A stretch of 64,000 bases of DNA, taken from an uncultured delta proteobacterium (GTDB lineage Bacteria > Desulfobacterota > Syntrophia > Syntrophales > Fen-1087). Shown in pieces: positions 7,873 to 59,673 of this stretch (position 1 is its first letter; the number at the start of each line of letters is the position of its first letter). The position numbers and the translations under genes were made by a program. The stretch covers positions 257,323 through 321,322 of the forward strand of contig CAVUOQ010000012.1 in NCBI GenBank assembly GCA_963743175.1. The letters run 5' to 3'. The notes beneath the pieces were generated by a model. The model saw only the letters and a list, made by a program, of their open reading frames with translations. It was not told the origin of the DNA and ran no database searches.

Positions 7873-7998
7873 GACGGTTTCATAAAAAGTCCGGATGCTG
7901 CGTTGCGCTACATCCTTCGTCGTTGCGGCGTACGTCCAAGTACGCCTCTCTCCTCAGGATTTGCGCGCCTTGCCTGCGGAACTTTTTATGAAGCCGTC
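7873..7998. repeat. palindromic intergenic repeat, family 2 (copy 2)
   Basis: GACGGTTTCATAAAAAGTCCGGATGC...GCGGAACTTTTTATGAAGCCGTC. Begins directly after the mnmE stop codon. Confidence 0.75.
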
Positions 7999-8057
7999 TA
8001 ATGTGGATAGTTTTTTGACTTTTTATGAGTTCGGCAAGTAGGACGACTTCGCAGCGT

Positions 8058-29441: not shown

Positions 29442-29607
29442 GAGAGATTTACATCACCGGTGAAAAATGGTTCGCAAGCGGTGAATCAAAGATTTTTCGA
29501 CTTCCCAGAAATTAGATTAATTTATTGATTTCAATCATATTTATGCATTATCATCTCTTAAGCGAAAAAGATGTTGAGCCGCGGCGAAGCCGTTTTTCAA
29601 AGGGTTC
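29442..29607 (+). repeat. long-hairpin intergenic repeat, family 1, copy C (most diverged)
   Basis: ..GGTGAAAAATGGTTCGCAAGCGGTGAATCAAAGATTTTTCGA...AGCGAAAAAGATGTTGAGCCGCGGCGAAGCCGTTTTTCAAAGGGTTC. Confidence 0.75.
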
Positions 29608-29610
29608 ATA

Positions 29611-30948
29611 TCAGGGTTTTCGCTTTTCACGCAGCTTCCGCCACTGATCCATTCTTTCCCGGATGATTTTCTCATAACCCCTCTCTGTCGGGCTATAGTA
29701 AGATTGCCCCTTCAGGGACTCCGGCAGGTAGTCCTGGGGGATGTAGGCGTCTTCAAAATCGTGGGCATAGAGATAGCCCTTGCCGTAGCCGAGATCCTTC
29801 ATGAGCCCCGTGGGTGCATTGCGGATATGCAGCGGTACGGGTAGCGTGCCGGTACGACCGATGGTTTCCTTGACCCGGCCATAGCCTCTGTAAAGAGCGT
29901 TGCTTTTTGAGGCCGTGGCCAGATACACGGCTGCCTGGGCCAGGGCCAGCTCCCCTTCGGGAAGTCCGATAAACTGGAATGCCTGCATCGCCGAGACGCA
30001 GAGCGTCAGCGCCCTCGGATCGGCATTTCCCACATCCTCCGAGGCAAAGCGGACCATCCGGCGGGCAATAAAAAGGGGGTCTTCGCCGGCGGCCAGCATC
30101 CGGCCCAACCAGTAAAGGGCGGCATCCGGATCGGATCCCCGGAGGCTTTTATGGAAGGCCGAGATCAGGTTATAGTGCTCCTCTCCGCCTTTGTCATAGA
30201 GCAGAAATTTCTTCTGAAAGGCTTCCTCGACAACACTGCGGGTTATTTTTCTTTCGCCATCGTGCCCCGTATCGACCAGGGAGGCCACTGCTTCCATGGT
30301 GTTCAGTGCCGTGCGGGCGTCGCCGTCGGCGGACCAGACAATGGCCGACAGGGCTTCCTGCTCAACATCGAGGCTCAAGGCGCCCAGCCCCCGTTCATCG
30401 TCCGCAACCGCCCTTTTCAGGATCAATGAAAGGTCGTCATCGGAAAAGGGTTTCAGGAGCATGACCCGCGAGCGGGACAACAGCGGGGCGATGATTTCAA
30501 AGGAGGGATTTTCGGTGGTGGCGCCGATCAACGTGATCAGGCCGCTTTCCACGTGCGGCAGAAAGGCATCCTGCTGGGCCTTGTTGAAACGATGGATTTC
30601 ATCGACGAAAAGGAGCGTTTTTACCCGGTGATCCCGCCACTGTGTCCGGGCCTCATCCACGACGGAACGGATCTCCTTCACCCCGGACAACACTGCGGAA
30701 AAGCTGACGAAATGTGACTGTGTTTCCCGTGCGATCACTCTGGCCAGGGTCGTCTTGCCGGAGCCCGGCGGACCCCAGAAAATCATGGAAAAAAGGCGGT
30801 CCTCTTCAATAGCGCGACGGAGCAGGCCTCCTTCACCCAGCAAATGCGGCTGTCCCACGTATTCCGCAAGGGTGCGCGGCCGCATCCGGTCCGCCAGCGG
30901 CCGGGGATCATCACCGCTTTTCGTTTCCTGTTGGTCAAAAAGATCCAT
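29611..30948 (-). CDS. rarA: replication-associated recombination protein A (AAA+ ATPase)
   Basis: GPPGSGKTTLA, LFVDEIHRFNK, and the C-terminal MgsA domain. Start at MDLFDQQ (30948), because the upstream part of ORF 29611..31035 runs into repeat D. Confidence 0.9.
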   Translation of the reverse strand: MDLFDQQETKSGDDPRPLADRMRPRTLAEYVGQPHLLGEGGLLRRAIEEDRLFSMIFWGPPGSGKTTLARVIARETQSHFVSFSAVLSGVKEIRSVVDEARTQWRDHRVKTLLFVDEIHRFNKAQQDAFLPHVESGLITLIGATTENPSFEIIAPLLSRSRVMLLKPFSDDDLSLILKRAVADDERGLGALSLDVEQEALSAIVWSADGDARTALNTMEAVASLVDTGHDGERKITRSVVEEAFQKKFLLYDKGGEEHYNLISAFHKSLRGSDPDAALYWLGRMLAAGEDPLFIARRMVRFASEDVGNADPRALTLCVSAMQAFQFIGLPEGELALAQAAVYLATASKSNALYRGYGRVKETIGRTGTLPVPLHIRNAPTGLMKDLGYGKGYLYAHDFEDAYIPQDYLPESLKGQSYYSPTERGYEKIIRERMDQWRKLREKRKP

Positions 30949-47653: not shown

Positions 47654-47730
47654 GCCCCCGTAGCTCAGTAGGATAGAGCAACGGATTCCTAATCCGTGTG
47701 CCGCGCGTTCGAATCGCGCCGGGGGTACCA
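47654..47730 (+). tRNA. tRNA-Arg (anticodon CCT), CCA encoded
   Basis: Hand-folded cloverleaf: acceptor GCCCCCG/CGGGGGT, D arm GCTC..GAGC, anticodon stem ACGGA/TCCGT with loop TTCCTAA, T arm GCGCG-TTCGAAT-CGCGC, discriminator A, CCA. Confidence 0.9.
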
Positions 47731-47844: not shown

Positions 47845-48603
47845 ATGAATAATCTTCTTGCCGGTAAAACAGCTATTATAACCGGCGCCAGTTCGGGTAT
47901 AGGGCGTGCCACAGCTTTGAATCTGGCACAGGCGGGCGCTGCTGTGGTGGTTCACGCCCGGCGTAAAGACCGGCTTGATGAACTGTCTTCCGAAATTGCT
48001 GCCCGAGGTGGCAAGGCTCTCGCTATAGCGGGTGACGCAGGGATGCAATCCGACATTGATTTACTCCTGGAGCGTGCCTTATCCTGGACTGGAGGCGGGT
48101 GCAGGTATGACATCGTCGTTGTCAATGCTGGCCGCGGACTTGCGGGTGGCATACTCAACAGTGAAGAATCTAAGTGGCAGGAGCTTTACCAAGTAAACGT
48201 TCTTGGTGCCACCCATCTGTTGCGTCAGGCGGGACGTCACATGGCTCAACAAAAAAGCGGTGATATTGTGGTTATCGGATCGGTAGTCGGAAGGCACATC
48301 TCGCCTTTCAGCGATTTTTATGGTTCAAGCAAATTCGCCATCGGCGCTATAGCAGAAGGTCTCCGCCGTGAAATCTGCCCACATGGCGTACGCGTCTCTT
48401 TGGTCATGCCCGGTATTGTACTCAGTGAATTCCAGGATATAGCTGGCTACAATGAGGAAAACTTCGGCAAGGGGATTGCTCAATTTGGCAAGTTGCTTGA
48501 ACCCCAAGCCATCGCTGACGGCATTCAATGGCTGCTTACTTTACCACCGCATGTCAATGTCAATGAAATCATGATCCGACCCACCGGTCAGAGCTACCCG
48601 TAA
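47845..48603 (+). CDS. SDR-family oxidoreductase
   Basis: TGASSGIGRA, NAG, and YGSSK. Confidence 0.9.
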   Translation: MNNLLAGKTAIITGASSGIGRATALNLAQAGAAVVVHARRKDRLDELSSEIAARGGKALAIAGDAGMQSDIDLLLERALSWTGGGCRYDIVVVNAGRGLAGGILNSEESKWQELYQVNVLGATHLLRQAGRHMAQQKSGDIVVIGSVVGRHISPFSDFYGSSKFAIGAIAEGLRREICPHGVRVSLVMPGIVLSEFQDIAGYNEENFGKGIAQFGKLLEPQAIADGIQWLLTLPPHVNVNEIMIRPTGQSYP

Positions 48604-48725: not shown

Positions 48726-49616
48726 TCACGAGACCATCTCGTCAATGATGACCTTGACAGGCTTGATCTCCTTGATGAGTGCGGCCACCTGGCCGGCTCC
48801 GGCCGGGAAGAGATCGAAGTCACCGCTCATCCAGCCCTTCGGGGCATTCATCAGATTGTATTCCTGCGATAGATCGAAGGTCGGATCTGCTGACAGGTCG
48901 ATCAGTTTCTTGTTGGGAATGACGCGCATCTTCATGTTTTTCAGGGGCACCAACGTCGTGCCGCCGTCGCCGCAGGCCAGAATGGCTTCTTTCCATCCCT
49001 GCGGGGCGGGCGCTTCTTCTGAGGCAATGAAGCGCGTCCCGACCTGCACCCCCTGCGCCCCCAAGGCCAGTGCCGCACGGTAACCACGTCGGTCGGCGAT
49101 GCCGCCCGCCGCCACGATGGGAATTTTCACATGATCGGCCACTAAAGGCACCAGGACCATCGTGGAGGACTCGGAGCCCATGGAACGTAAGCCGCCCGAC
49201 TCCGATCCGGAAACCACGAGTCCGTCCGCACCTTCACCGGCTGCCCGGATTGCGTGGGAAAATGCCAGGAGTACGTGCAACCCATTCATGCCCAGGTCGT
49301 GAATGAGGGGATAGATTCGCGCCGGCGATCCGGCCGAGGTCGTGACGGTCTTTACACCCGCTTCGGCCAGGATTTTCAGGATCTCAGGATTGGCGGGATT
49401 CATGATCATGATGTTGGCCCCGAAGGGCTTATCCGTGAGCTCTCGCACCCCGTCCACAAGCTTTCTCGTTTCCTCGGGGCTGCTGAACCCCAGTGCGAGC
49501 ATCCCGAAAGCACCCGCTTCGCAAACGGCAGCGGTCAGCCGCGGACTGTTCATGGCCGCAATGGGCCCCTGAATGATGGGATAACGGCAACCTAACATTC
49601 CCGCTAACGTTGACAT
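48726..49616 (-). CDS. nitronate monooxygenase / FabK-like enoyl reductase family protein
   Basis: YPIIQGPIAAM..., VAAGGIADRRG, GAQGVQVGTRF. Confidence 0.85.
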   Translation of the reverse strand: MSTLAGMLGCRYPIIQGPIAAMNSPRLTAAVCEAGAFGMLALGFSSPEETRKLVDGVRELTDKPFGANIMIMNPANPEILKILAEAGVKTVTTSAGSPARIYPLIHDLGMNGLHVLLAFSHAIRAAGEGADGLVVSGSESGGLRSMGSESSTMVLVPLVADHVKIPIVAAGGIADRRGYRAALALGAQGVQVGTRFIASEEAPAPQGWKEAILACGDGGTTLVPLKNMKMRVIPNKKLIDLSADPTFDLSQEYNLMNAPKGWMSGDFDLFPAGAGQVAALIKEIKPVKVIIDEMVS

Positions 49617-49777
49617 AGCATTTCCTCCTCGGTTTTATTCTGAATTCATCGTTCCCCTGCGCCTCTATTCAGCCGGAATATAAAGGTAAATACACCGTAT
49701 GTCAACAGTATTCAGGTCAACGGGGCAAAGCGTTATGCCCGGATGTATTTGTCCCAGGAATATTCAGCGGAAAATAT

Positions 49778-49795
49778 TGATTGACAAGTCAATCA
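49778..49795. promoter_or_regulatory. inverted repeat TGATTGAC-AA-GTCAATCA, candidate TetR operator overlapping a TTGACA -35-like hexamer
   Basis: Perfect 8-bp arms, 22 nt upstream of the TetR ATG, in the divergent FabK-like/TetR intergenic region. Confidence 0.5.
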
Positions 49796-49816
49796 GTTGC
49801 TGATAGCCAGCCCGTC

Positions 49817-50410
49817 ATGGACAGGACAGACCGCGAAAAAATCATTATCGACGCCGCGTTGAAGGTTTTCAGCACCAAAGGTTACGCCAGCACGCGCATG
49901 GCCGATATCGCCAAAGAGGCCGACATGTCTTACGGGTTGGTCTATCACTATTTTGAAAACAAGGAAAAGCTCTTCGACGCCATTGTGGAAGACTGGTGGA
50001 GCGGCTTCTACGACGCGCTGGACATACTGAAGCTAAGCGACATCAGCACGGAGGAAAAGCTGGTGGAAATCATCCGTTATATCCTCAAGGTCTACGAAAA
50101 CAAGCCGAATCAGCTTTCCATTTTCATCACCGAAGTCTCCCGGGGATTTGTCTATCATGCCAACTCCAAAGGAAAGGACAAGTTCAAGAAACTCTTTTCG
50201 CTCTGCAAGGACATTATGACGGAAGGGCAGCAGAGGGGTTTTCTGAGGAACGATATCCAGGCCAATTATCTGACCTACCTGTTCCTCGGCTCCATCGACT
50301 CCTTCCTGTCGGTTTTGATTCTCGGCAATGAAAAACTCAACGCGGCCAGGCAAAAACGCTTCACCGACGGCATTACGAGTGTATTTCTGAATGGGTCGGT
50401 GTCAAGATAA
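49817..50410 (+). CDS. TetR/AcrR family transcriptional regulator
   Basis: HTH region YASTRMADIAKEADMSYGLVYHYFENKEKLF. Start at ATG 49817 (the ORF-track TTG is at 49781). Confidence 0.9.
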   Translation: MDRTDREKIIIDAALKVFSTKGYASTRMADIAKEADMSYGLVYHYFENKEKLFDAIVEDWWSGFYDALDILKLSDISTEEKLVEIIRYILKVYENKPNQLSIFITEVSRGFVYHANSKGKDKFKKLFSLCKDIMTEGQQRGFLRNDIQANYLTYLFLGSIDSFLSVLILGNEKLNAARQKRFTDGITSVFLNGSVSR

Positions 50411-50426
50411 AGGACGCTCCACGGAT

Positions 50427-51029
50427 ATGATGCTCAAGGGCCAGCTACATACCCACACCACCTTTTCGGATGGCACGCTGACGCCGCAGGAAGTGGCTGA
50501 CGTTTACGCCTCTTTAGGCTTTGACTTCTTGGCCTTTACCGACCACGATCACCTGTTGAAACCCGCCGATTTGCAATTGCTCCGTGAGGTCAAATCCGAC
50601 ATGATCCTCTTTTTCGGCATCGAACTGACCGTGCGCTGCAGCAAGGGATATGTCCATGTCAACCGCATCGACGGCGACCGTGATGTCCTTCATATCTTCA
50701 ATCATCCGGCGGATTACGATCTGACGCTGAAAAAAACCATGGACTGCTTGGAAGAAGTCGCCGGCCTCTATGCCCTGGACGCTGTGGAGGTCACGCACCA
50801 TGGCTTTTACACCCCCCCGTTCGACATCGACGCGATCCCCTACCCCAAGGTGGCGGCGGATGATTCCCACAACCGTCTGGCCTGCGGGCGCGGCTGGGTT
50901 GAAATGGACTGCGAGCAAAACCGGGACGCCATTATCGCCGCCATTCGCAGCGGCAATTTCCGGAACCGCTATGCGGGCGGCACTTATAAAAGGAGACCCG
51001 CCGGTTTGCAGCGGATGCAACTGGCATAG
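50427..51029 (+). CDS. PHP-domain metal-dependent phosphoesterase
   Basis: LHTHTTFSDG and FTDHDH. Confidence 0.8.
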   Translation: MMLKGQLHTHTTFSDGTLTPQEVADVYASLGFDFLAFTDHDHLLKPADLQLLREVKSDMILFFGIELTVRCSKGYVHVNRIDGDRDVLHIFNHPADYDLTLKKTMDCLEEVAGLYALDAVEVTHHGFYTPPFDIDAIPYPKVAADDSHNRLACGRGWVEMDCEQNRDAIIAAIRSGNFRNRYAGGTYKRRPAGLQRMQLA

Positions 51030-51074
51030 CCTCTAAATTTGTATAAACATTCAAAGGAGGAAGGAGATGTTTTT

Positions 51075-52223
51075 ATGGCTGCTAAAAAAGTGGCAATCTG
51101 TGCGGTCGCCCAGCACAGGAACGAATCCGATCTCTGGCACAAGCGGTTTCAGGGCATGCTTCTGGACGTGCTCGAGGATCTGCAGGCCCAGACGGGATTC
51201 GACTTCAACGAAGAGACCGGCGTCAATACCATCGTGAGCTGCTCCGATGATTTTTTTGACGCCCGGACGATTTCCAACAACGGCGTCACCGACGTTCTGG
51301 GCGGCCATTATCGCGCCGAGGAAAAAATGGCCCAGGAAGGTCTCAACGCCATCGGCTACGCCATGTCAGTGATCCTGTCCGGCCATAGCGACCTGGTGCT
51401 TGTCATGGGCCACTGCAAGGAGTCGCAGTCCGAAAGCCGCAACATGATCACCAACATGGGCTTCGATCCTTTCTACGGCCGCGCGGTCGGGCTGGACTAC
51501 ATGAATGCGGCGGCGCTGCAGGCCCGCGCCTACATGACGAAAGCGGGCGTCACGGACGAACACCTGGCCCGGGTCGTGGTGCGCGCCCGTCAGTGGGCCG
51601 CCAAGAATCCCTATGCCAACGCCCGCGAAGTCGTTGAAGGCGGAAAGGTCATGGCTTCCCCCATGATCTGCGATCCCATCCGGCAGCTCCATGCTTACCC
51701 CGTCTCGGACGGCGCCGTGGGCATGCTCCTGGCCTCGGAAGCGCGGGCACGGGAATTTACAAAAAAACCCGTCTGGATCACAGGCTTTGCCAACTGCATG
51801 GACAGTTATTTTTTCGGCGACCGCGACCTGACGAGCAACTTCGCCCTGAAAAAAGCGGCGGAACGCGCCTATCAAAAAGCCGGAATCAAGGACCCGAAAA
51901 AGGCGATCGACGTGGTCGAAGTCTCGGACGCCTACGCCTATCAGCAGCCCCTGTGGATGGAAGGGCTGGGCTTTAGTGAAGCGGGACAGGGCGGCCGGTT
52001 CATCGAGGAGGGCGGACCCGAAAAATACAAGGTAAATCAATCCGGCGGCATGCTGGCGGGCAACCCCGTGATCATTTCCGGATTGTACCGGGCCGCGGAA
52101 GCCGCGCTTCAGCTCCGGGGCGAGGCGGGAGACCATCAGGTCCCGGATGCGAAGCGCGCGCTGGCGCAATCAACAACCGGAGCGGCCGGACAGTTTCACT
52201 CCGTGTTAATTCTTGAGGCATAG
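51075..52223 (+). CDS. thiolase-fold (SCP-x-like) protein, catalytic Cys/His apparently absent
   Basis: Thiolase-like length and motifs (..GHSDLVLVMGHCKES.., NQSGGMLAGNPVIISG, LQLRGEAG). Start at MAAKKVAI after the RBS AGGAGGAAGGAG. Confidence 0.85.
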   Translation: MAAKKVAICAVAQHRNESDLWHKRFQGMLLDVLEDLQAQTGFDFNEETGVNTIVSCSDDFFDARTISNNGVTDVLGGHYRAEEKMAQEGLNAIGYAMSVILSGHSDLVLVMGHCKESQSESRNMITNMGFDPFYGRAVGLDYMNAAALQARAYMTKAGVTDEHLARVVVRARQWAAKNPYANAREVVEGGKVMASPMICDPIRQLHAYPVSDGAVGMLLASEARAREFTKKPVWITGFANCMDSYFFGDRDLTSNFALKKAAERAYQKAGIKDPKKAIDVVEVSDAYAYQQPLWMEGLGFSEAGQGGRFIEEGGPEKYKVNQSGGMLAGNPVIISGLYRAAEAALQLRGEAGDHQVPDAKRALAQSTTGAAGQFHSVLILEA

Positions 52224-52232
52224 GGAGGTCCA

Positions 52233-53450
52233 ATGATGAAAAAACATAAAAAGAATAGAAATGTCGCGATTATCGGCATCGGCCAGACCAGCCTGTCCTC
52301 TCACAAGGAAGACCAGAACCAGGTGGAAATGGTCCAGGAGGCCGTGATCAATGCCCTGCAGGATGCCAATCTCACGATCAACGACATTGACTGCATCGTC
52401 CACGGCAACATGGAGCTTTTTGAAATGCAGTTTGCCCCGGATTTATGGCATTCTTTGGGAACCGGCGCCCGCGGCAAGGACGAATATCGGATCACGACCG
52501 GCGGCACGACCGGGATGACCCTGGTCTGTGCAGCCGACAACCTCGTGGCCTCCGGGCTTTATGATACGGTGCTTGCCATCGGAATGGAGAAACTGCAGGA
52601 GGGCAACACCACCGGCGGCATTACCAACATGGCCGATCCGCTGTGGTTCAGAAATCTGCAGACGGGCGCCCTGACCGGCACGACCGCCACGGAAATGATT
52701 AATGAATTCGGAGAGGAACGGGCAAAACGCGCCGCCATAAAATACCGCATCATGATGGACAAGCACGCCATGCTCAATCCCCGCGCGCATCGCCGCTTCG
52801 GCCTGGAATATGAACAGGGTCCAGAGCTGGCGGCCACCTCTCCGCAACTGGTGGGAGAGCTCCGGCTCATTCACATGTGCTCCCAGTCGGACGGCGCTTG
52901 CGCCATGATCTTCACGTCCGAGCAAAAGGTCAAAAAAGGGACCGCCAAGCCGCCCGTCTGGATTCGCGACCACCTTCAGACCCACCGTGAAGAAACGATC
53001 CCCAATCTTTTCGGTCGCATCAAGCCGGAGATGACCCACCATTACTGCGCCCGAAAGCTCTATGAGCGCAACGGCATTGCCGACCCGGTTGACTATTTTG
53101 ATGTGTTCGAAATGTACGACCCTTCCGCCTGGTGGGCCATGGACTGGCTGCGGGAATTCTTCTTGCTGAAAGGCGATGAACACCTCCAGATGCTCGAACG
53201 CGGCGATTTTGATCTGGACGGCAAGATTCCCATCAACCCGTCCGGCGGCGTGATTGCCAGCAACCCCATCGGCGCAACGGCCATGCTGAGGCCGGCGGAG
53301 GCTGCCCTGCAGATCCGCGGAGACGCCGGTCCGCACCAGATCAAAAAAGAGGTGAAACATGCACTGGCATCCGGTTTCGGGGGCACGTTATGGACTACGC
53401 TGATGATTTTAGAAAAAGACCTTAATTGGCAGGAGGTTGAAAATGGCTGA
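52233..53450 (+). CDS. thiolase-fold (SCP-x-like) protein, catalytic Cys/His apparently absent
   Basis: NVAIIGIGQT, VLAIGMEKL, NPSGGVIASNPIGAT and LQIRGDAG. Confidence 0.85.
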   Translation: MMKKHKKNRNVAIIGIGQTSLSSHKEDQNQVEMVQEAVINALQDANLTINDIDCIVHGNMELFEMQFAPDLWHSLGTGARGKDEYRITTGGTTGMTLVCAADNLVASGLYDTVLAIGMEKLQEGNTTGGITNMADPLWFRNLQTGALTGTTATEMINEFGEERAKRAAIKYRIMMDKHAMLNPRAHRRFGLEYEQGPELAATSPQLVGELRLIHMCSQSDGACAMIFTSEQKVKKGTAKPPVWIRDHLQTHREETIPNLFGRIKPEMTHHYCARKLYERNGIADPVDYFDVFEMYDPSAWWAMDWLREFFLLKGDEHLQMLERGDFDLDGKIPINPSGGVIASNPIGATAMLRPAEAALQIRGDAGPHQIKKEVKHALASGFGGTLWTTLMILEKDLNWQEVENG

Positions 53451-54603
53451 ATATTATGGGGCAACCGTTGCGGATATCTTCAATACCATGCCCAAACGCT
53501 TCAAGCCCGAAGAGGCGAAGGACGTGGATATTATCATCGGATACGAGGCGACCGGCGAAGGGGGCGGCATGTGGACGGCCCACATCAAGCACGGAACCCT
53601 GACCGTCAACAAAGTCGAAGAACTCAAGGGGTGCAAGACCACCATTCACGCCAATGCGGAAACGTTTGTGGGCGTGACACTCGGGAAAATCACCGCCATC
53701 GACGCCTTGACCTCACAGAAGCTGCGCGTGGTCGGGGACGCCCGGCTGCTCATGACGCTGCTGCCGAAGGTCTTCGTTCCGTTCACGGTCATTCCCAAGA
53801 AAAAAGCGGTCAGTGCCCGGGACATCCTGACGACCGTGGAATCGCGCTTCCGTCCCGAGAAGGCCGAAGGCGTCGCCATGAATGTCGGTTACGACCTCAC
53901 CGGTCCGGAGGGCGGTCAGTGGACCCTGCAGATCAAGGATGAACAATGCAAGGTTCGCGAAGGATTTTCGGATAACCTGACCGTCAAGCTCATCATGGAT
54001 GCGGGCGTCTATGCCGGCATGATGCTCGGAACCATCGACGGTGCGTCGGCGTTTACGTCCGGACAGGTCAAGATCGAAGGGGATATGATGGCCGCGGCGG
54101 CGACGGGAAAATTCTTTCACAAGTATGTGGATCCAGGCGCAAAGGAAGCGGAGGAACTGATCTGCCTGCGGGTCACCAATGCCCTCGAACAGCGATTCGC
54201 ATCGGGTCCCGTCATGGGAAAGTGGTTTGCCGGACTGCGCGAAAAGAAATTCCTGGCAAACAAGTGTCCCGAATGCGGCCGGACGCAGATCCCGCCCCGT
54301 GAAATCTGCGCGATCTGCCGGGTCCGCGTCAATGAATTCGTCGAACTGGGACCGGCCGGCACGGTGACCAACTATGACATCGTCTATTTTGCGAGCCCCG
54401 ATCCGCTTACAGGCGCTGGCCGGGATACGCCCTACGCCCCTATATACGTGGTGCTGGACGGCGCCAGCGAAAGTGAGGCCTTTGCCTTTGAACTCAAGAA
54501 GGAGGACATCAGCCGGATCAAGGTAGGGGCTCGGGTGAGGCCGGTCTGGGCGGACAAGCCCGTCGGCAGCTTCAGGGACGTGCTCTGCTTTGAAATGGAA
54601 TAG
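53443..54603 (+). CDS. two SCP2-like domains fused to a DUF35 zinc-ribbon/OB-fold domain
   Basis: SCP2-like repeats (..LTVNKVEELKGCKTTIHANAETFVGVTLGKI..QKLRVVGD.. and ..LIMDAGVYAGMMLGTIDGASAFTSGQVKIEGD..), then CPECGRTQIPPREICAICR and an OB part. The ATG at 53443 follows the RBS AGGAGG. Confidence 0.8.
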   Translation: MAEYYGATVADIFNTMPKRFKPEEAKDVDIIIGYEATGEGGGMWTAHIKHGTLTVNKVEELKGCKTTIHANAETFVGVTLGKITAIDALTSQKLRVVGDARLLMTLLPKVFVPFTVIPKKKAVSARDILTTVESRFRPEKAEGVAMNVGYDLTGPEGGQWTLQIKDEQCKVREGFSDNLTVKLIMDAGVYAGMMLGTIDGASAFTSGQVKIEGDMMAAAATGKFFHKYVDPGAKEAEELICLRVTNALEQRFASGPVMGKWFAGLREKKFLANKCPECGRTQIPPREICAICRVRVNEFVELGPAGTVTNYDIVYFASPDPLTGAGRDTPYAPIYVVLDGASESEAFAFELKKEDISRIKVGARVRPVWADKPVGSFRDVLCFEME

Positions 54604-54622
54604 AATCAGGAGGAAACGACGT

Positions 54623-55078
54623 ATGAAAGAAGACACCAATAACTGCTTTGTCCTGGAAGGGAAAATGGCCCTTCCGAATCAGTATTTTGCCGGACGGCTT
54701 GGATCGCAATTCATCATCGCCCTGCGGGACAAGAAAAAGATCAAGGGCGTCCGCTGTGAGAAATGCAGCACAACCTTCATCCCGCCCAGAGAATACTGTG
54801 AGCATTGCTGGACGAAGATCGCCGACAACTGGGTGGATCTGGGCAATGAAGGGGAACTGGTCAATTATACCGTCGTGCGCTACAACGACAAGCATCTCCC
54901 GAAAAAGGCGCCCTATATCCTGGGACAGATCAAATTGACCGGTGCGGATACGCCGCTGACGCATATCGTCACGGGCGTCGATCCCAGGGATGTGCGTGTG
55001 GGCATGAAGGTCAAGGCGGTTTTTGCAGAAAAGACGACCAACACGATCATGGATCTGGATCATTTTGAGCCGGTGTAA
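54623..55078 (+). CDS. DUF35 zinc-ribbon/OB-fold protein
   Basis: CEKCSTTFIPPREYCEHC followed by an OB-fold part. RBS AGGAGG. Confidence 0.85.
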   Translation: MKEDTNNCFVLEGKMALPNQYFAGRLGSQFIIALRDKKKIKGVRCEKCSTTFIPPREYCEHCWTKIADNWVDLGNEGELVNYTVVRYNDKHLPKKAPYILGQIKLTGADTPLTHIVTGVDPRDVRVGMKVKAVFAEKTTNTIMDLDHFEPV

Positions 55079-55146
55079 AGGAAATCCGGAGCAAAAGCGT
55101 CTTAACCATATCTCGATGAATTTTCTGACAGAAGGAGGAACACATC

Positions 55147-56019
55147 ATGGCAAAGGAAGCGAATCCCGTCATCATCTGCGCGGCGCTGACCGGGGCGGCG
55201 ACCGCGAAAAACAACAACCCCAGCACTCCCTATACGATTCAGGAATTTGCCGAGGAGGCCTATAAATGCCGGCAGGCCGGGGCGGCGATGGTCCATGTCC
55301 ATGCCCGGACGGACGACGGCCAGCCGACGCATGAAATCGACCGGATTCAGGCCGTTTACGACGCCATCAAGCAGAAAAGTCCGGACCTGCTCATCTGCCT
55401 GAGCTCTGCCGTTGGCATCTTCAAGACACCGGAAGAGCGTCTGGCCCAAATCATCGCCGTCAAGCCGGAGATGGCCTCCTACAACACCAACAGCATGAAT
55501 TTCAGCATCATCGACCGAAATACGGGGATGATCTTTTTCGATTATATTTTCGACAACACCTTCACGATGCTGCAGGACTTCGGCAAGGCCTTTGAAGAGA
55601 ACAAGGTCAAGCCCGAGATCGAGTGTTATGACGTCAGCGGCATCGACAACACCATGATCATCTCCAAGCAGGGCTTTTTCACGCAGCCCATGAATTTCAA
55701 TTTTGTCTGGGGTGTCACGGGCGGCCAGCATTTCCGGCCCGAGATGATGATCGCCATGAAGAACGCCCTGCCGCCGGGCTCCAATTTCACCACGTGCGCC
55801 GTCGGCGTAGAGCAGTTTCCCGCCAACATGATGTCCTGCATCCTGGGCGGCAACATGCGCGTAGGGATGGAGGACAACACCCGCATGCCCAACGGCGATC
55901 TGGCCAAAGGCAGCTACGAACAGGTGGAATGGTGCGTGAAAGTGGCCGCCGCCCTGAACCGGGAACCGGCGACACCGGCAGAAGCCCGTGAAATTATGGG
56001 TATCCGGAAAGAATCATAA
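55147..56019 (+). CDS. BKACE-family (3-keto-5-aminohexanoate cleavage enzyme-like, DUF849) protein
   Basis: IICAALTGA...AGAAMVHVHARTDDG. Confidence 0.85.
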   Translation: MAKEANPVIICAALTGAATAKNNNPSTPYTIQEFAEEAYKCRQAGAAMVHVHARTDDGQPTHEIDRIQAVYDAIKQKSPDLLICLSSAVGIFKTPEERLAQIIAVKPEMASYNTNSMNFSIIDRNTGMIFFDYIFDNTFTMLQDFGKAFEENKVKPEIECYDVSGIDNTMIISKQGFFTQPMNFNFVWGVTGGQHFRPEMMIAMKNALPPGSNFTTCAVGVEQFPANMMSCILGGNMRVGMEDNTRMPNGDLAKGSYEQVEWCVKVAAALNREPATPAEAREIMGIRKES

Positions 56020-56030
56020 AGGAAAAAATC

Positions 56031-57179
56031 ATGGATTTTTCATTCAACGATGAACAGCGCATGTTCCGGGAAACCGTGTACCGATTCGTCAAGGAAGAGA
56101 TCGCGCCGCTTTGCGAGGAAGCCGATCTCAAGGGCGAGTTCAGTTTCGACGTCTGGCGGAAAATGGGCGAGATGGGCCTGCTGGGCCTGCCCATTCCGGA
56201 ACAATACGGCGGACAGGGGGCGGATATTGTAACCTGCTGCCTGGCCGGCGAGGCCGTGGGGCACGCGGGCGCGGATGGCGGCCACACGTTGGCCTGGGGC
56301 GCCCATACCTATCTGTGCGCCGCCAATATCATGCAACACGGAACGGAGGCGCAAAAAAAGAAATATCTGCCCAAACTGGCCACCGGCGAATGGATCGGCT
56401 GCATGGGACTGACCGAACCGGGGTGTGGATCGGATGCCGCCGCCCTGACGACGACCGCCGTCAGAAAAGGGGACAAGTATATCCTGAACGGCTCCAAGAC
56501 GTTTATCACCAACGCCCCTCTGTCGGAAGTTTTCGTCGTCTTTGCCACGCTCGACAAGGCACAGAAACACAAGGGCATTACGACATTCATTGTGGAAAAG
56601 GGCTTCCCGGGAATTTCCACCGGAAAGCCGATGCACAAGATGGGCTGCAGAGCTTCCGTAACCTCCGAGGTTTTCTTTGAAGACTGCGAGGTCCCCATGG
56701 AAAACTGTCTCGGTGGGGAAGGCCTGGGTTGGCTCATCGCCCTGGGCGGCGTCGAGTGGGATCGCAGCACGCTGCTTTCGCCGTTTCTCGGGGGCGGCAT
56801 GTTTATGCTGGAAAACTGTGCACGTTACGCCAATCAGCGCCGGGCCTTCAACCGGCCAATCCGTGACTTTCAGTCCATTCAGAACCGCATCGCCGACATG
56901 AAAGTCTATATCGAGGCCTCCAAGCTGGCCGTTTACCGCGTGGCCGCCTCCAAGGACAACGGTATGGCCCTGAACCCGCTCTATGCAGGCGTGAGCAAGG
57001 TTTACATGGGCGACAAGGGTTTCGAGATGTCCTCGGCGGCCGTCGATCTCTTCGGCGGATACGGCTACATCCATGAGTATCCTGTCGAGCGCGGATTGCG
57101 GGATGCAAAGCTGGGACAGTTGGGCGGCGGCACGTCGGATATCATGCGCATGATCGTTGCCCGGATCATGATGATGTAG
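56031..57179 (+). CDS. acyl-CoA dehydrogenase
   Basis: GCMGLTEPGCGSDAA, FITNA, and the C-terminal YEGTSDI-like GGGTSDIM. Confidence 0.9.
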   Translation: MDFSFNDEQRMFRETVYRFVKEEIAPLCEEADLKGEFSFDVWRKMGEMGLLGLPIPEQYGGQGADIVTCCLAGEAVGHAGADGGHTLAWGAHTYLCAANIMQHGTEAQKKKYLPKLATGEWIGCMGLTEPGCGSDAAALTTTAVRKGDKYILNGSKTFITNAPLSEVFVVFATLDKAQKHKGITTFIVEKGFPGISTGKPMHKMGCRASVTSEVFFEDCEVPMENCLGGEGLGWLIALGGVEWDRSTLLSPFLGGGMFMLENCARYANQRRAFNRPIRDFQSIQNRIADMKVYIEASKLAVYRVAASKDNGMALNPLYAGVSKVYMGDKGFEMSSAAVDLFGGYGYIHEYPVERGLRDAKLGQLGGGTSDIMRMIVARIMMM

Positions 57180-57193
57180 GGAGGGAAAAATCA

Positions 57194-58336
57194 ATGAACT
57201 TTGAACTCAACGAGACACAGAAAAATCTGCAGAAAACGATGGCCGCCTTCTGCCAGACAGAGATTCTGCCGGGCGCCGCCGCGCTGGATGCAATGCCGAA
57301 AGAACAGGTCGCCGCCGCGCTCAAAGCCAATCTGAAAAAACTGGGGGCTGCCGGTTATCTGAATCTTCTCCTTGAAGGTGATCTGGTCGGCCAGTGCGTA
57401 GCCGGCGAGGAAGCGGCCCGGGCCTGTCCGGCCACCTTTGTCTGTGCCATGTCCACGGCGACGGCCTTCGGCCTTCCCGTGAAACGATTCGGCGCCCCGG
57501 CCCAACAGGAGAAATATCTGCCCGGCGTCATCCGGGGGGAGTTCATCGGCGGCCTGGCCTGCACCGAAGCCGACGCAGGCTCTGATCTGTCCGGCATCCG
57601 GACGACCGCGGAAAAGAAGGGCCCCGGCTGGATTCTCAACGGATCTAAATATCTGGTCACCAATGCACCGATCGCCGACGCCCTGCTGGTGCTGGCCTGG
57701 ACCGACCGCGCCGCCGGGCTGGACAAAGGCCTGACATTTTTTATCATTGAAAAAGAGGCAACGGGCTTGAACATCGGACCACCGCTGGAAACCATGGGGC
57801 TGCGCGGCGCCCTGATCTCGGAAATCACATTTGATAACTGTGAACTCTCTGATGATGCGGTCCTCGGTCATGAAGCCGGCCATGGTTACGCTCAGTTTAC
57901 GCAGGTGATGGAGTATGTAAAGCTGGCGCTGTCCGCCATGTCCGTGGGACTCGGAACGGCCTGCATGGAAGATTCGACGACATACGCCAAGACCAGAAAA
58001 GCCTTCGGAAAACCTATCGGTTTGTTCGAAGGGGTCGGCGCCAAGCTGGCGACGATGTTCACCGCCAATGACGTGGGTCGGATGCTGGCCTATCGGGCGG
58101 CCTGGGCCATGGAACAACAGGACCCGGAAAGTGCGGTGCTGACCGCCTGCGCCAAGCTTTTCACGAGTGAAGCCGTGAATGAAATCGCCGACCTGGCCAT
58201 GCAGGTGTACGGCGGGCACGGTTATCTGAAGGGCTCGACGGTGGAACGGCTTTACCGGGATGCCCGGTATGCGGTCATCGCTTATGGCACATCGGAAATG
58301 CAGCGGGCCGCGATCGCCAGGGACAGCTCTGGATAA
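57194..58336 (+). CDS. acyl-CoA dehydrogenase
   Basis: GGLACTEADAGSDLS, LVTNA and QVYGGHGY. Confidence 0.9.
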   Translation: MNFELNETQKNLQKTMAAFCQTEILPGAAALDAMPKEQVAAALKANLKKLGAAGYLNLLLEGDLVGQCVAGEEAARACPATFVCAMSTATAFGLPVKRFGAPAQQEKYLPGVIRGEFIGGLACTEADAGSDLSGIRTTAEKKGPGWILNGSKYLVTNAPIADALLVLAWTDRAAGLDKGLTFFIIEKEATGLNIGPPLETMGLRGALISEITFDNCELSDDAVLGHEAGHGYAQFTQVMEYVKLALSAMSVGLGTACMEDSTTYAKTRKAFGKPIGLFEGVGAKLATMFTANDVGRMLAYRAAWAMEQQDPESAVLTACAKLFTSEAVNEIADLAMQVYGGHGYLKGSTVERLYRDARYAVIAYGTSEMQRAAIARDSSG

Positions 58337-58347
58337 GTTCACGTCAT

Positions 58348-58475
58348 GACGACTTCGTAAAAAGTCCGGATGCTTCGTTGCGCGGCATCATTACGTCATT
58401 GCGGTGTATGTCGGTATACGCCTCATTCCTCATGATTTGCGCGCCTCGCCTGCGGAGCTTTTTTTCGAAGCCGTC
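58348..58475. repeat. palindromic intergenic repeat, family 2 (copy 3)
   Basis: GACGACTTCGTAAAAAGTCCGGATGC...GCGGAGCTTTTTTTCGAAGCCGTC. Begins 11 nt after the acyl-CoA dehydrogenase stop. Confidence 0.75.
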
Positions 58476-58533
58476 TTAAATGCAACTTTTTGACATTTTA
58501 CAAATTCATCAAGCCATAAGAGGGGAAAGCGAC

Positions 58534-59673
58534 ATGTACGAGGAATATTTTTCAGAGGAGCATCATATTTTTCGGGCCAGCGTCCGCAAATTCGTGGAAA
58601 AGGAAATCAAACCCCACATCGATCACTGGGAGGACGAGGAACTTTTCCCCGTTGAACTTTATCGGAAATCCGCCGCTGCGGGCCTCCTGGGCCTGGAGTA
58701 TCCGGAAATCTATGGCGGCACGCCCTGTGATAAGTTCATGAATATCGTCTACACGGAAGAGATGATCGGAAGCGGGTCGGTCGGGCTGGTGGCCGGGTTG
58801 GGGAGCTACAGCATCGCCATGCCGCCCGTCCTGAATCTTGGCACGGAAGCACAGAAGCAGAAATTTCTCGTTCCCGTTCTGAAAGGCGAAAAAATTGCCG
58901 CCCTGGGCATCACGGAGCCTAACGCCGGCTCCGATGTCGCCAATATCCGGACGCGGGCCGTGCGCGACGGCGATGATTATATCGTCAACGGCGCCAAGAC
59001 CTTCATCACGAGCGGCTGTCGCGCCCATTTTGTCACGACCGCCGTGCGGACGGGCGGTCCCGGTTACAAGGGGGTGAGCCTGCTGATGATCGACACCTCC
59101 ACCCCTGGGTTTTCCGTCGCCAAAAAAATCCGGAAAATGGGCTGGAACGCCTCCGATACAGCCGAATTAAGCTTTGTGGATTGCCGCGTTCCCGCCGAGA
59201 ACATCCTGGGCGACGAGGGACAGGGATTTGTGGGCATCATGATAAACTTCCAGAATGAGCGCCTGGCTTTGGCCGTCATGGCCCATGCCGTGGCCGCGCT
59301 GGCCCTGGAGGAATCTATCCGGTACGCCAAAACCCGTGAAGCCTTCGGCCGGACCCTGAGCGGCTTCCAGGTCACGCGCCACAAGCTCGTGGACATGGCC
59401 ACAAAAGTCGAAGTGGCCCGGCAGTTCAACTACCGGGTCGCCGCAAAAATGCAGGCCGGCCAGGACGCGATCCGGGATGTTTCCATGGCGAAGAATTTTG
59501 CCTGCGAGGTCTGCGACAAGGTGGTCTATGACGCCGTCCAGATTCATGGCGGCTACGGCTACGCCCGCGAGTACATGGTCGAGCGGCTTTACCGGGATTC
59601 CCGTATCCTGAGCATCGGCGGGGGCACGACGGAAATCATGAAAGAGATCATCAGCAAGGTTTCCCGGTTCTGA
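58534..59673 (+). CDS. acyl-CoA dehydrogenase
   Basis: LGITEPNAGSDVA, FITSG, QIHGGYGY and GGGTTEIM. Start at MYEEYF after the RBS AGAGGGGA. Confidence 0.9.
   Translation: MYEEYFSEEHHIFRASVRKFVEKEIKPHIDHWEDEELFPVELYRKSAAAGLLGLEYPEIYGGTPCDKFMNIVYTEEMIGSGSVGLVAGLGSYSIAMPPVLNLGTEAQKQKFLVPVLKGEKIAALGITEPNAGSDVANIRTRAVRDGDDYIVNGAKTFITSGCRAHFVTTAVRTGGPGYKGVSLLMIDTSTPGFSVAKKIRKMGWNASDTAELSFVDCRVPAENILGDEGQGFVGIMINFQNERLALAVMAHAVAALALEESIRYAKTREAFGRTLSGFQVTRHKLVDMATKVEVARQFNYRVAAKMQAGQDAIRDVSMAKNFACEVCDKVVYDAVQIHGGYGYAREYMVERLYRDSRILSIGGGTTEIMKEIISKVSRF

Follow-up and report, generated by a model that had tools for sequence, protein, structure and literature searches.

To our knowledge, complexes of a thiolase-fold protein with a DUF35 protein are known from few pathways, namely archaeal mevalonate synthesis, benzylsuccinate degradation and those of steroid side chains and acylphloroglucinols. 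In Ltp2 and Sal, a short motif (Y294-D-H-F in Ltp2, Y302-D-C-Y in Sal) provides a Tyr that is the catalytic base, the backbone amide of a Gly (Gly89 in Sal) touches the substrate hydroxyl, and Tyr344 (Ltp2) or Cys304 (Sal) serves as the acid (PMC12329534). The adjacent genes ltp3 and ltp4 are described as aldol-lyase genes of C24-branched sterol degradation (Wilbrink 2012, as cited in PMC6593523). Here we analyze a block of ten genes at 49.8-59.7 kb of a 64,000-nucleotide stretch of DNA from an uncultured delta proteobacterium (hereafter the window; G000:C12:257323-321322, from a 2.5-Mb, 86%-complete genome). In this block, a TetR-family regulator is followed by a PHP-family phosphoesterase, two thiolase-fold proteins (Thl1 and Thl2), two DUF35 proteins, one of them fused to two SCP2 domains, a beta-keto-acid cleavage enzyme (BKACE, DUF849) and three acyl-CoA dehydrogenases (ACAD1 to ACAD3). 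We consider it probable that the block is a conserved, uncharacterised operon of acyl-CoA catabolism with a non-thiolytic thiolase-fold/DUF35/BKACE complex.

The original prediction for this locus, made from the letters of the window, had placed all ten genes on the plus strand from TetR to the third ACAD. The list of open reading frames (ORFs) and a Pfam domain search gave the same placement:

49817-50410, plus strand: TetR-family regulator, FadR(Bacillus)/YsiA-like (Pfam TetR_N, E 1.4e-18; TetR_C_4)
50427-51029, plus strand: compact PHP-family metallo-phosphoesterase, ~200 aa (Pfam PHP)
51075-52223, plus strand: Thl1, SCPx/archaeal-type thiolase-fold protein whose catalytic residues are gone (Thiolase_C_1)
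52233-53450, plus strand: Thl2, thiolase-fold protein, candidate retro-aldolase subunit (Thiolase_C_1)
53443-54603, plus strand: SCP2-SCP2-DUF35 fusion (Alkyl_sulf_C, which is SCP2-like; SCP2; zf-ChsH2; OB_ChsH2_C)
54623-55078, plus strand: stand-alone DUF35, zinc ribbon and OB fold (domain search)
55147-56019, plus strand: BKACE (DUF849), beta-keto-acid cleavage enzyme (Pfam, 297 bits)
56031-57179, plus strand: ACAD1, isovaleryl-CoA-dehydrogenase-like (three ACAD domains)
57194-58336, plus strand: ACAD2, ACAD fold (three ACAD domains)
58346-58463, no strand assigned: dispersed hairpin repeat, REP/MITE-like (blastn, folding)
58480-59673, plus strand: ACAD3, catalytic Glu of the isovaleryl-CoA/long-chain acyl-CoA dehydrogenase (IVD/LCAD) type (three ACAD domains)

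Ortholog alignments moved four starts inward, to 50427 for PHP, 51075 for Thl1, 53443 for the fusion and 54623 for the stand-alone DUF35. The longer options for these genes begin at 50391, 51039, 53437 and 54590, respectively, and Thl1 residues are numbered here from the TTG at 51039. With the adjusted starts, the junctions between genes measure -8 to 68 nt, the exception being the 143-nt spacer between ACAD2 and ACAD3. We found no excess of terminators inside the block, and the only Rfam match near it is a tRNA at 47654-47727.

The original prediction had proposed a check of gene-cluster conservation. We observed that the order TetR-PHP-Thl1-Thl2-fusion-DUF35-BKACE-ACAD1-ACAD2(-ACAD3) is kept in ~20 loci from metagenome-assembled genomes (MAGs) of uncultured Syntrophaceae or "Deltaproteobacteria". 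It recurs in genomes of the same genus, the same family and the same order, and public MAGs add 18 such loci, which carry the names Syntrophaceae, Deltaproteobacteria or Thermodesulfobacteriota and were sampled in fens, in lake and marine sediments, in aquifers and in bioreactors; the closest public loci carry the labels uncultured Syntrophaceae or "delta proteobacterium" MAGs. Synteny extends to loci whose fusion protein is 54% identical to that of the window, while the flanks differ from locus to locus, and by this comparison the ten-gene block behaves as one unit. The genes are therefore co-conserved, as that prediction required. Nor was an assignment of the cluster to a known pathway found: no NCBIfam equivalog cut-off was reached, and no paper on it was found. 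Full-text literature searches returned no paper that combines BKACE/DUF849 with DUF35 or treats this cluster, and a 2026 comparative-genomics paper on Smithellaceae does not mention it. We conclude that this is a real conserved operon, undescribed in any paper that we found.

The module varies between loci in its accessory genes. In several loci, BKACE and ACAD1 are separated by an AMP-ligase, a two-subunit CoA-transferase and a second Thl/Thl/DUF35/DUF35 cassette. The core PHP-Thl1-Thl2-fusion-DUF35 reaches Spirochaetota and other uncultured-bacterium MAGs. In Spirochaetota MAGs, the order is PHP-Thl1-Thl2, an SCP2 fusion of 513 aa, a DUF35::BKACE fusion of 473 aa, ECH, in some cases an AMP-ligase, and a CoA-transferase. 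In the uncultured-bacterium MAG ADurb.Bin236, only four core genes are kept, and these adjoin an acetyl/acetoacetyl-CoA-synthetase-like ligase, a canonical thiolase and an FAA-hydrolase; in locus L047, the core is coupled with NMO, an OYE-type reductase, SDR and ECH. The 366 relatives of the SCP2-SCP2-DUF35 protein all come from uncultured organisms and carry generic names only.

The two thiolase-fold proteins were compared with solved thiolases by HMMER alignment and with their orthologues. In Thl1, the nucleophile loop reads M-A98-Q-E-G, with Ala in place of Cys, S296-D-A-Y stands at the HDCF position and G-N341-P at the G-H-P position. In Thl2, the loop reads T-T-G90-G91-T-T-G, with Gly in place of Cys, and the other two positions hold Y295-D-P-S and S-N344-P. 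These replacements hold in all orthologues, none of which has a nucleophile-loop Cys, and the nucleophilic Cys, the G-H-P His and the acid/base Cys of thiolases are all replaced in both proteins. The window's operon also lacks genes for a hydratase and a 3-hydroxyacyl-CoA dehydrogenase; together with the loss of the Cys/His/Cys set, this agrees with the earlier view that it is not a standard beta-oxidation operon. The combination of a Tyr base with Gly at the former nucleophile site that is seen in Ltp2 and Sal is present in Thl2 (Y295-D, with G90/91 invariant) and absent from Thl1, which has Ser296. From these residues we infer that Thl2 may work like the Ltp2/Sal aldolases, although we do not count it among their family, and that Thl1 is probably a non-catalytic partner.

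A second Thl/Thl/DUF35 cassette is present on contig C11 of the same genome, and its Thl2-type half keeps the nucleophile-loop Cys (E-T-C-G-S-T-G). A 787-aa ORF on that contig (G000:C11:131967-134330; L054 11510-13831) was considered as a natural Thl1-like::Thl2-like fusion, which would have supported the heterodimer by the Rosetta-stone argument. We rejected it as a frameshift or assembly artefact because, at its junction, an out-of-frame Arg/Gly/Pro-rich sequence stands where the first half should have its conserved C-terminus.

Two differing DUF35 genes lie directly downstream of the two differing thiolase-fold genes and match them one to one, an arrangement that is conserved across loci. 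Both DUF35 modules contain a CxxC-x10-CxxC ribbon (C277/280/291/294 in the fusion and C56/59/70/73 in the stand-alone protein). By analogy, two DUF35 and two thiolase-fold subunits would fit the alpha-beta-beta-alpha layout of the solved Ltp2/Sal complexes, and the SCP2-SCP2-DUF35 protein would be an adaptor whose SCP2 domains serve as lipid-binding modules.

BKACEs convert a beta-keto acid and acetyl-CoA to an acyl-CoA and acetoacetate. The window protein belongs to this family (PF05853, 297 bits against a 24.8-bit cut-off) and keeps the zinc ligands HxH (V-H-V-H) and Glu (M-E-D) in an alignment to PDB 3lot, which it matches together with PDB 2y7d. It reaches no NCBIfam equivalog cut-off, with Kce (NF052387, 3-keto-5-aminohexanoate cleavage enzyme) at 258 of 382 bits. 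In the Spirochaetota DUF35::BKACE protein, residues 6-153 are 59% identical to the window DUF35 and residues 192-472 are 70% identical to the window BKACE. Because these orthologues form one polypeptide, which is the strongest evidence on this point, BKACE probably docks on the thiolase-fold/DUF35 complex; no paper was found that describes DUF35 adjacency or fusion for a BKACE.

The genome holds four BKACE paralogues, on contigs C11, C1 and C19 and in the window. The region G000:C11:120757-124682 (L054 258-4183) holds three genes in a row, for an HpaB-family protein, an ACAD and a second BKACE, near a sigma-54 activator.

The PHP gene is nearly always the first structural gene of the block. 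The metal ligands of its family (HxH, DHDH, E, H, NH and DDxH) are present in the protein and invariant in 14-20 orthologues, and its AF2 model (pLDDT 89) is closest in the PDB to TM0559, RNase AM and the Cv1693 pAp phosphatase (E 1e-6 to 1e-10). A nucleotide- or CoA-type phosphoester would be our guess at its substrate.

The three acyl-CoA dehydrogenases named in the original prediction have the expected fold, but ACAD2 is without a recognisable catalytic base. None of the three has the Glu of medium-chain acyl-CoA dehydrogenase (MCAD) in its usual place, and a catalytic carboxylate was sought at the positions of MCAD E376 and IVD E254. ACAD1, which scores 329 bits to isovaleryl-CoA dehydrogenase structures, has GGG at the MCAD-Glu position and an invariant Asp244 (W-D-R) on helix G at the IVD-Glu position. 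ACAD3 likewise has GGG at the MCAD position, together with an IVD/LCAD-type Glu260 (Q-N-E260-R-L), and shares 39% identity with the ACAD in the Atu-like cluster that this genome has on contig C8 (described below). By their residues, the active sites of ACAD1 and ACAD3 are of the isovaleryl-CoA-dehydrogenase type. Sites of the IVD/LCAD type are used for beta-branched or bulky substrates. The proposal of a bulky or branched substrate therefore gains support from these two sites and from the aldolase-like Gly/Tyr signature of Thl2.

ACAD2 has Tyr at the MCAD-Glu position (His in some close orthologues) and no helix-G base. Comparison with L035, L018 and L019 confines the change from Glu to Tyr or His to the clade closest to the window, the distant orthologues keeping E-G-T-S-E, which suggests that dehydrogenase function was lost or altered recently. 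ACAD1 and ACAD2 are always an adjacent pair, and this pairing with one base-less partner recalls the alpha2beta2 ChsE enzymes.

Upstream of TetR, a perfect palindrome, TGATTGAC-AA-GTCAATCA, lies at 49778-49795. The operator-like palindrome of the original prediction is thus present, but it ends 21 nt, not 22 nt, before the TetR ATG. A TTGACA -35 box (49781-49786) lies within it, and 17 nt after TTGACA the sequence reads TGnTAnnnn (TGATAGCCA, 49801-49809, plus strand), which we take as the probable -10 of the operon promoter. None of the shuffled windows gave two matches, and the palindrome is not a chance feature of the window. Among 17 related loci, 16 have ATTGACA[AT]GTCAATCA as the only conserved upstream block, 21-24 nt from the TetR ATG; the core had no match in the seventeenth, L047. 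The TG.TA that follows the core is also conserved in an alignment of 17 loci (the window and 16 others). The simplest reading is that the palindrome is a predicted operator overlapping the -35 box of the operon promoter, at which TetR would bind. TetR carries an HTH, is closest to Bacillus FadR/YsiA, and has FadR as its best NCBIfam match (70 bits against a 200-bit cut-off). The 2.5-Mb genome contains no other exact copy of the palindrome core, and the regulator looks local. Two one-mismatch sites, on C10 and C17, were rejected as further members of a regulon, as they adjoin unrelated genes.

From these features, we put at about even the chance that the block is a TetR-controlled operon for non-thiolytic (aldol- or Claisen-type) degradation of a hydrophobic, probably beta-branched acyl-CoA. 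In the scheme that we propose, the FadR/YsiA-like TetR, probably released by an acyl-CoA, would bind the palindrome over its own -35 box and so keep the whole block off. Thl1 and Thl2 would form a thiolase-fold heterodimer in which one DUF35 staple bears two SCP2 lipid-binding domains and the other recruits BKACE. This complex would not thiolyse its substrate, because neither thiolase-fold subunit can form an acyl-enzyme. ACAD1, perhaps paired with ACAD2, and ACAD3 would introduce a 2,3 double bond into a beta-branched or bulky chain, and a hydratase and a CoA ligase would be supplied from elsewhere in the genome. Retro-aldol cleavage of the hindered 3-hydroxyacyl-CoA would fall to Thl2, with Tyr295 as the acting residue and Gly in place of the former Cys, and BKACE would react a beta-keto acid with acetyl-CoA to give a shortened acyl-CoA and acetoacetate. 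Related loci carry ECH, an AMP-ligase and an acetoacetate-type CoA-transferase (A/B) within the operon, and the CoA-transferase genes fit the activation of acetoacetate. The degradative direction of flux is the one that we favor; retro-aldol plus BKACE chemistry falls a little short of an even chance, and a beta-methyl-branched (isoprenoid-like) substrate is a tentative suggestion that we regard as doubtful.

Hydration of a 3-methyl-2-enoyl-CoA yields a tertiary alcohol, which is not oxidisable, and steroid side-chain degradation passes this block by retro-aldol cleavage. The same logic would connect the IVD-type ACADs, the Cys-less, Tyr-bearing lyase and the absent 3-hydroxyacyl-CoA dehydrogenase of the present operon. 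In a more specific version, the DUF35-stapled Thl1/Thl2 lyase would cleave the tertiary 3-hydroxyacyl-CoA of a long beta-branched isoprenoid-type chain, a compound resembling 3-hydroxy-3-methylglutaryl-CoA (HMG-CoA), into acetyl-CoA and a labile free beta-keto acid, which the docked BKACE would turn into shortened acyl-CoA and acetoacetate. We consider this two-step channelling unlikely. If it were true, anaerobes would have an undescribed means of getting past a beta-branch without thiolysis, and the scheme could explain the tethering of BKACE and the accompanying acetoacetate CoA-transferase genes; the tethering could follow because HMG-CoA-lyase-like cleavage yields both BKACE substrates, acetyl-CoA and the beta-keto acid.

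Several observations weigh against the retro-aldol degradation that we propose. Four loci (L036, L038, L043 and L047) have no BKACE, and the window's operon has no hydratase. In Thl2, the second catalytic residue of Ltp2 and Sal has no recognised counterpart, with Pro297 at the position of Sal Cys304 and Ltp2 His296 and with Asn344 where the GHP motif of thiolases has its His. The profile scores of Thl2 (SCP2-thiolase 182, archaeal thiolase 172, BbsB 139, Ltp2 112 and Sal 99 bits) place it outside the Ltp2/Sal sequence clade. Its AF2 model has a pLDDT of 78 with low-confidence active-site loops, and Foldseek with this model gave TM values of 0.70-0.77 for the whole DUF35-associated group, which did not separate aldolase from thiolase. 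The scheme gives no role to the PHP phosphoesterase, although its gene is universally linked. Nor was a source of the free beta-keto acid identified: ketone carboxylation is not supported, as a search of the 86%-complete genome for a Hydantoinase_B (acetone-carboxylase type) gene found none, and no usable literature on isoprenoid-ketone carboxylation was found.

A link between the module and an Atu-like carboxylase cluster of the same genome was also considered. HMGL-type lyases occur elsewhere in the genome. An Atu/Liu-like cluster at G000:C8:24122-35570 (L055 7123-18570) contains a carboxyltransferase, a biotin carboxylase, ECH, AtuA, an AMP-ligase, an ACAD, an NMO-like reductase and TetR; its AtuA is split by an in-frame TGA or frameshift (C8:29088-29558 and 29554-30396), and its NMO is 32% identical to that of the window. 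AtuA occurs in 7 of 13 module-bearing relatives, with no convincing co-variation with the module, and no carboxylase adjoins the AtuA-like gene that G010 has close to the module.

The gaps in the Thl2 active site lend themselves to another explanation, in which Thl1 and Thl2 are dead enzymes that hold the SCP2 domains and BKACE in place while BKACE and the ACADs do all the chemistry. The loss of the thiolase catalytic residues from both subunits, the lack of a match in Thl2 for the second Ltp2/Sal-type residue and the clear adaptor character of the DUF35 proteins are all consistent with such a scaffold. However, no other proteins of the block are as well conserved as Thl1 and Thl2 (70-80% identity, in loci with an adaptor identity of 54-62%), which argues for catalysis or very tight assembly; because of this difference, pure scaffolds would be unexpected. 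The segments E293-x-Y295-x-P297 and N344-P-I-G-A-T of Thl2 are moreover invariant, even in the paralogous second cassette, and the core occurs without BKACE in several loci. We therefore regard a pure scaffold as unlikely.

The direction of flux could also be the reverse, with a condensing (reverse beta-oxidation) module in which the ACADs, the NMO/FabK-like reductase and SDR act as reductases in the synthesis of a branched lipid or keto acid. Both the BKACE reaction and the aldol reaction can run in either direction, the operon of the window has an NMO/FabK-like gene (48726-49616) and SDR (47845-48603) beside it, and similar genes lie near L027, L028 and L047. We nevertheless think such a biosynthetic role rather unlikely, given that the regulator is FadR/YsiA-like, that the AMP-ligase, acetoacetate-type CoA-transferase and ECH of related loci are the usual company of catabolic operons, and that NMO and SDR are not adjacent to the block in same-genus loci.

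A true steroid side-chain system of the Ltp2/Sal or Ltp3-Ltp4 type, acting on sterol or hopanoid side chains under anoxic conditions, would share its architecture with the block: paired ACADs, a thiolase-fold protein, DUF35, "sterol carrier" domains and TetR. The best full-length NCBIfam matches of the thiolase-fold proteins are PRK07937 and PRK08313, both "lipid-transfer protein / thiolase domain" models that presumably correspond to Ltp3/Ltp4, and PMC6593523 assigns the adjacent ltp3/ltp4 aldol-lyase genes to C24-branched sterols. These matches are, however, far under their cut-offs (170 vs 419 and 252 vs 514 bits), real thiolases are closer in sequence than Ltp2 and Sal, neither the block nor its surroundings carry genes for steroid ring degradation, and no MaoC hydratase is fused to DUF35. 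A steroid system is thus very unlikely.

It is highly improbable that Thl1 and Thl2 are ordinary branched-chain thiolases with an unrecognised nucleophile, as the database names "acetyl-CoA acetyltransferase / thiolase domain" would have it: the fold and the closest sequence neighbours are those of real thiolases and the second cassette of related loci keeps the nucleophile-loop Cys, but no orthologue of either protein has this Cys, and the two oxyanion/catalytic His and the acid/base Cys are replaced as well.

The repeat that the original prediction had noted between the second and third dehydrogenase genes is the ~117-nt element at 58346-58463, inside the ACAD2-ACAD3 spacer. It is an imperfect palindrome that folds into a long hairpin (-47 kcal/mol, z -2.6). 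Genome-wide, blastn gave 70 further matches at 83-91% identity, about half of them near full length; one copy lies at 7883-7999 of the window (C12:265205-265321). The element is a recent insertion and no part of the system, because the same-genus orthologous locus L013 lacks it; the ACAD2-ACAD3 gap there is ~20 nt.

On the other side of the operon, the NMO/FabK-like flavoprotein gene lies on the minus strand, divergent from the block, with a strong promoter-like site (TTGACA-17-TATATT, 49677-49705) beside it. Similar NMO-like genes recur near the module in the three loci named above and in the C8 Atu-like cluster, and not in same-genus loci. Neither this gene nor SDR nor the downstream patatin gene has a counterpart in L013 or L014.

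The module is widely distributed among uncultured syntrophs that live in fens, sediments, aquifers and digesters, and its thiolase-fold proteins are currently mis-annotated as acetyl-CoA acetyltransferases. Should our proposal be correct, the operon would provide a route, so far unknown, for the anaerobic breakdown of branched lipids that resist degradation, for instance isoprenoid or sterol-like chains. It could also be a source of new aldolase and BKACE biocatalysts, and its sharply conserved operator offers an experimental handle for finding the inducing metabolite.

Set beside known systems, ACAD1 and ACAD3 share with isovaleryl-CoA dehydrogenase (1ivh, 4o5m) a Gly at the MCAD-Glu site and an acidic helix-G residue, as in IVD and LCAD, but ACAD1 has Asp, not Glu. 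The ACAD1-ACAD2 pair resembles the ChsE-type heteromeric steroid ACADs (alpha2beta2) in being adjacent and, in this clade, having one base-less partner, and differs from them in that ACAD2 keeps Glu in distant orthologues. The module BKACE is a TIM-barrel zinc enzyme with HxH and E, like Kce of lysine fermentation (PDB 2y7d) and the 3-oxoadipate and triacetate BKACEs; unlike theirs, its gene stands next to one for DUF35, and in Spirochaetota the two are fused, implying that it docks on a thiolase-fold complex.

By Foldseek, the closest structures to Thl2 (TM 0.70-0.77) are the Cys-bearing, DUF35-stapled channelling complexes of the thiolase superfamily, but these all keep the catalytic Cys, and none has BKACE, SCP2 or PHP. 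Two adjacent unlike thiolase-fold genes are also found as Ltp3/Ltp4 in Rhodococcus and Mycobacterium (Wilbrink 2012, as cited in PMC6593523). These are assigned genetically to aldolytic branch removal from C24-branched sterol side chains and are not known to have SCP2-DUF35, BKACE or PHP partners, nor is a structure or enzymology known for them; the module proteins score far under the cut-offs of these families.

The closest mechanistic parallels are Ltp2-ChsH2(DUF35) (PDB 6ok1) and Sal-Shy(DUF35) (PDB 9myr). The module shares with them an SCPx-type thiolase fold that lacks the nucleophilic Cys, the residues Tyr-Asp in the place of the HDCF motif (Y295-D in Thl2), a predicted DUF35 partner with a C4 zinc ribbon, which is obligatory in Ltp2/Sal, a neighbouring ACAD pair and TetR. 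It differs from them in its low similarity (Thl2 scores 112 and 99 bits to them but 182 to a true thiolase), in the lack of conservation of the second catalytic residue (Tyr344 of Ltp2, Cys304 of Sal) and in its hosts, which are strict anaerobes without steroid ring genes. Its DUF35 is fused to SCP2-SCP2 (to BKACE in Spirochaetota) and not to a MaoC hydratase, and its dimer would consist of two unlike subunits with two unlike DUF35 proteins. To the described thiolase-fold/DUF35 complexes, the module would thus add a heteromeric, cysteine-less version in which lipid-binding domains and a beta-keto-acid cleavage enzyme are attached to the adaptors.

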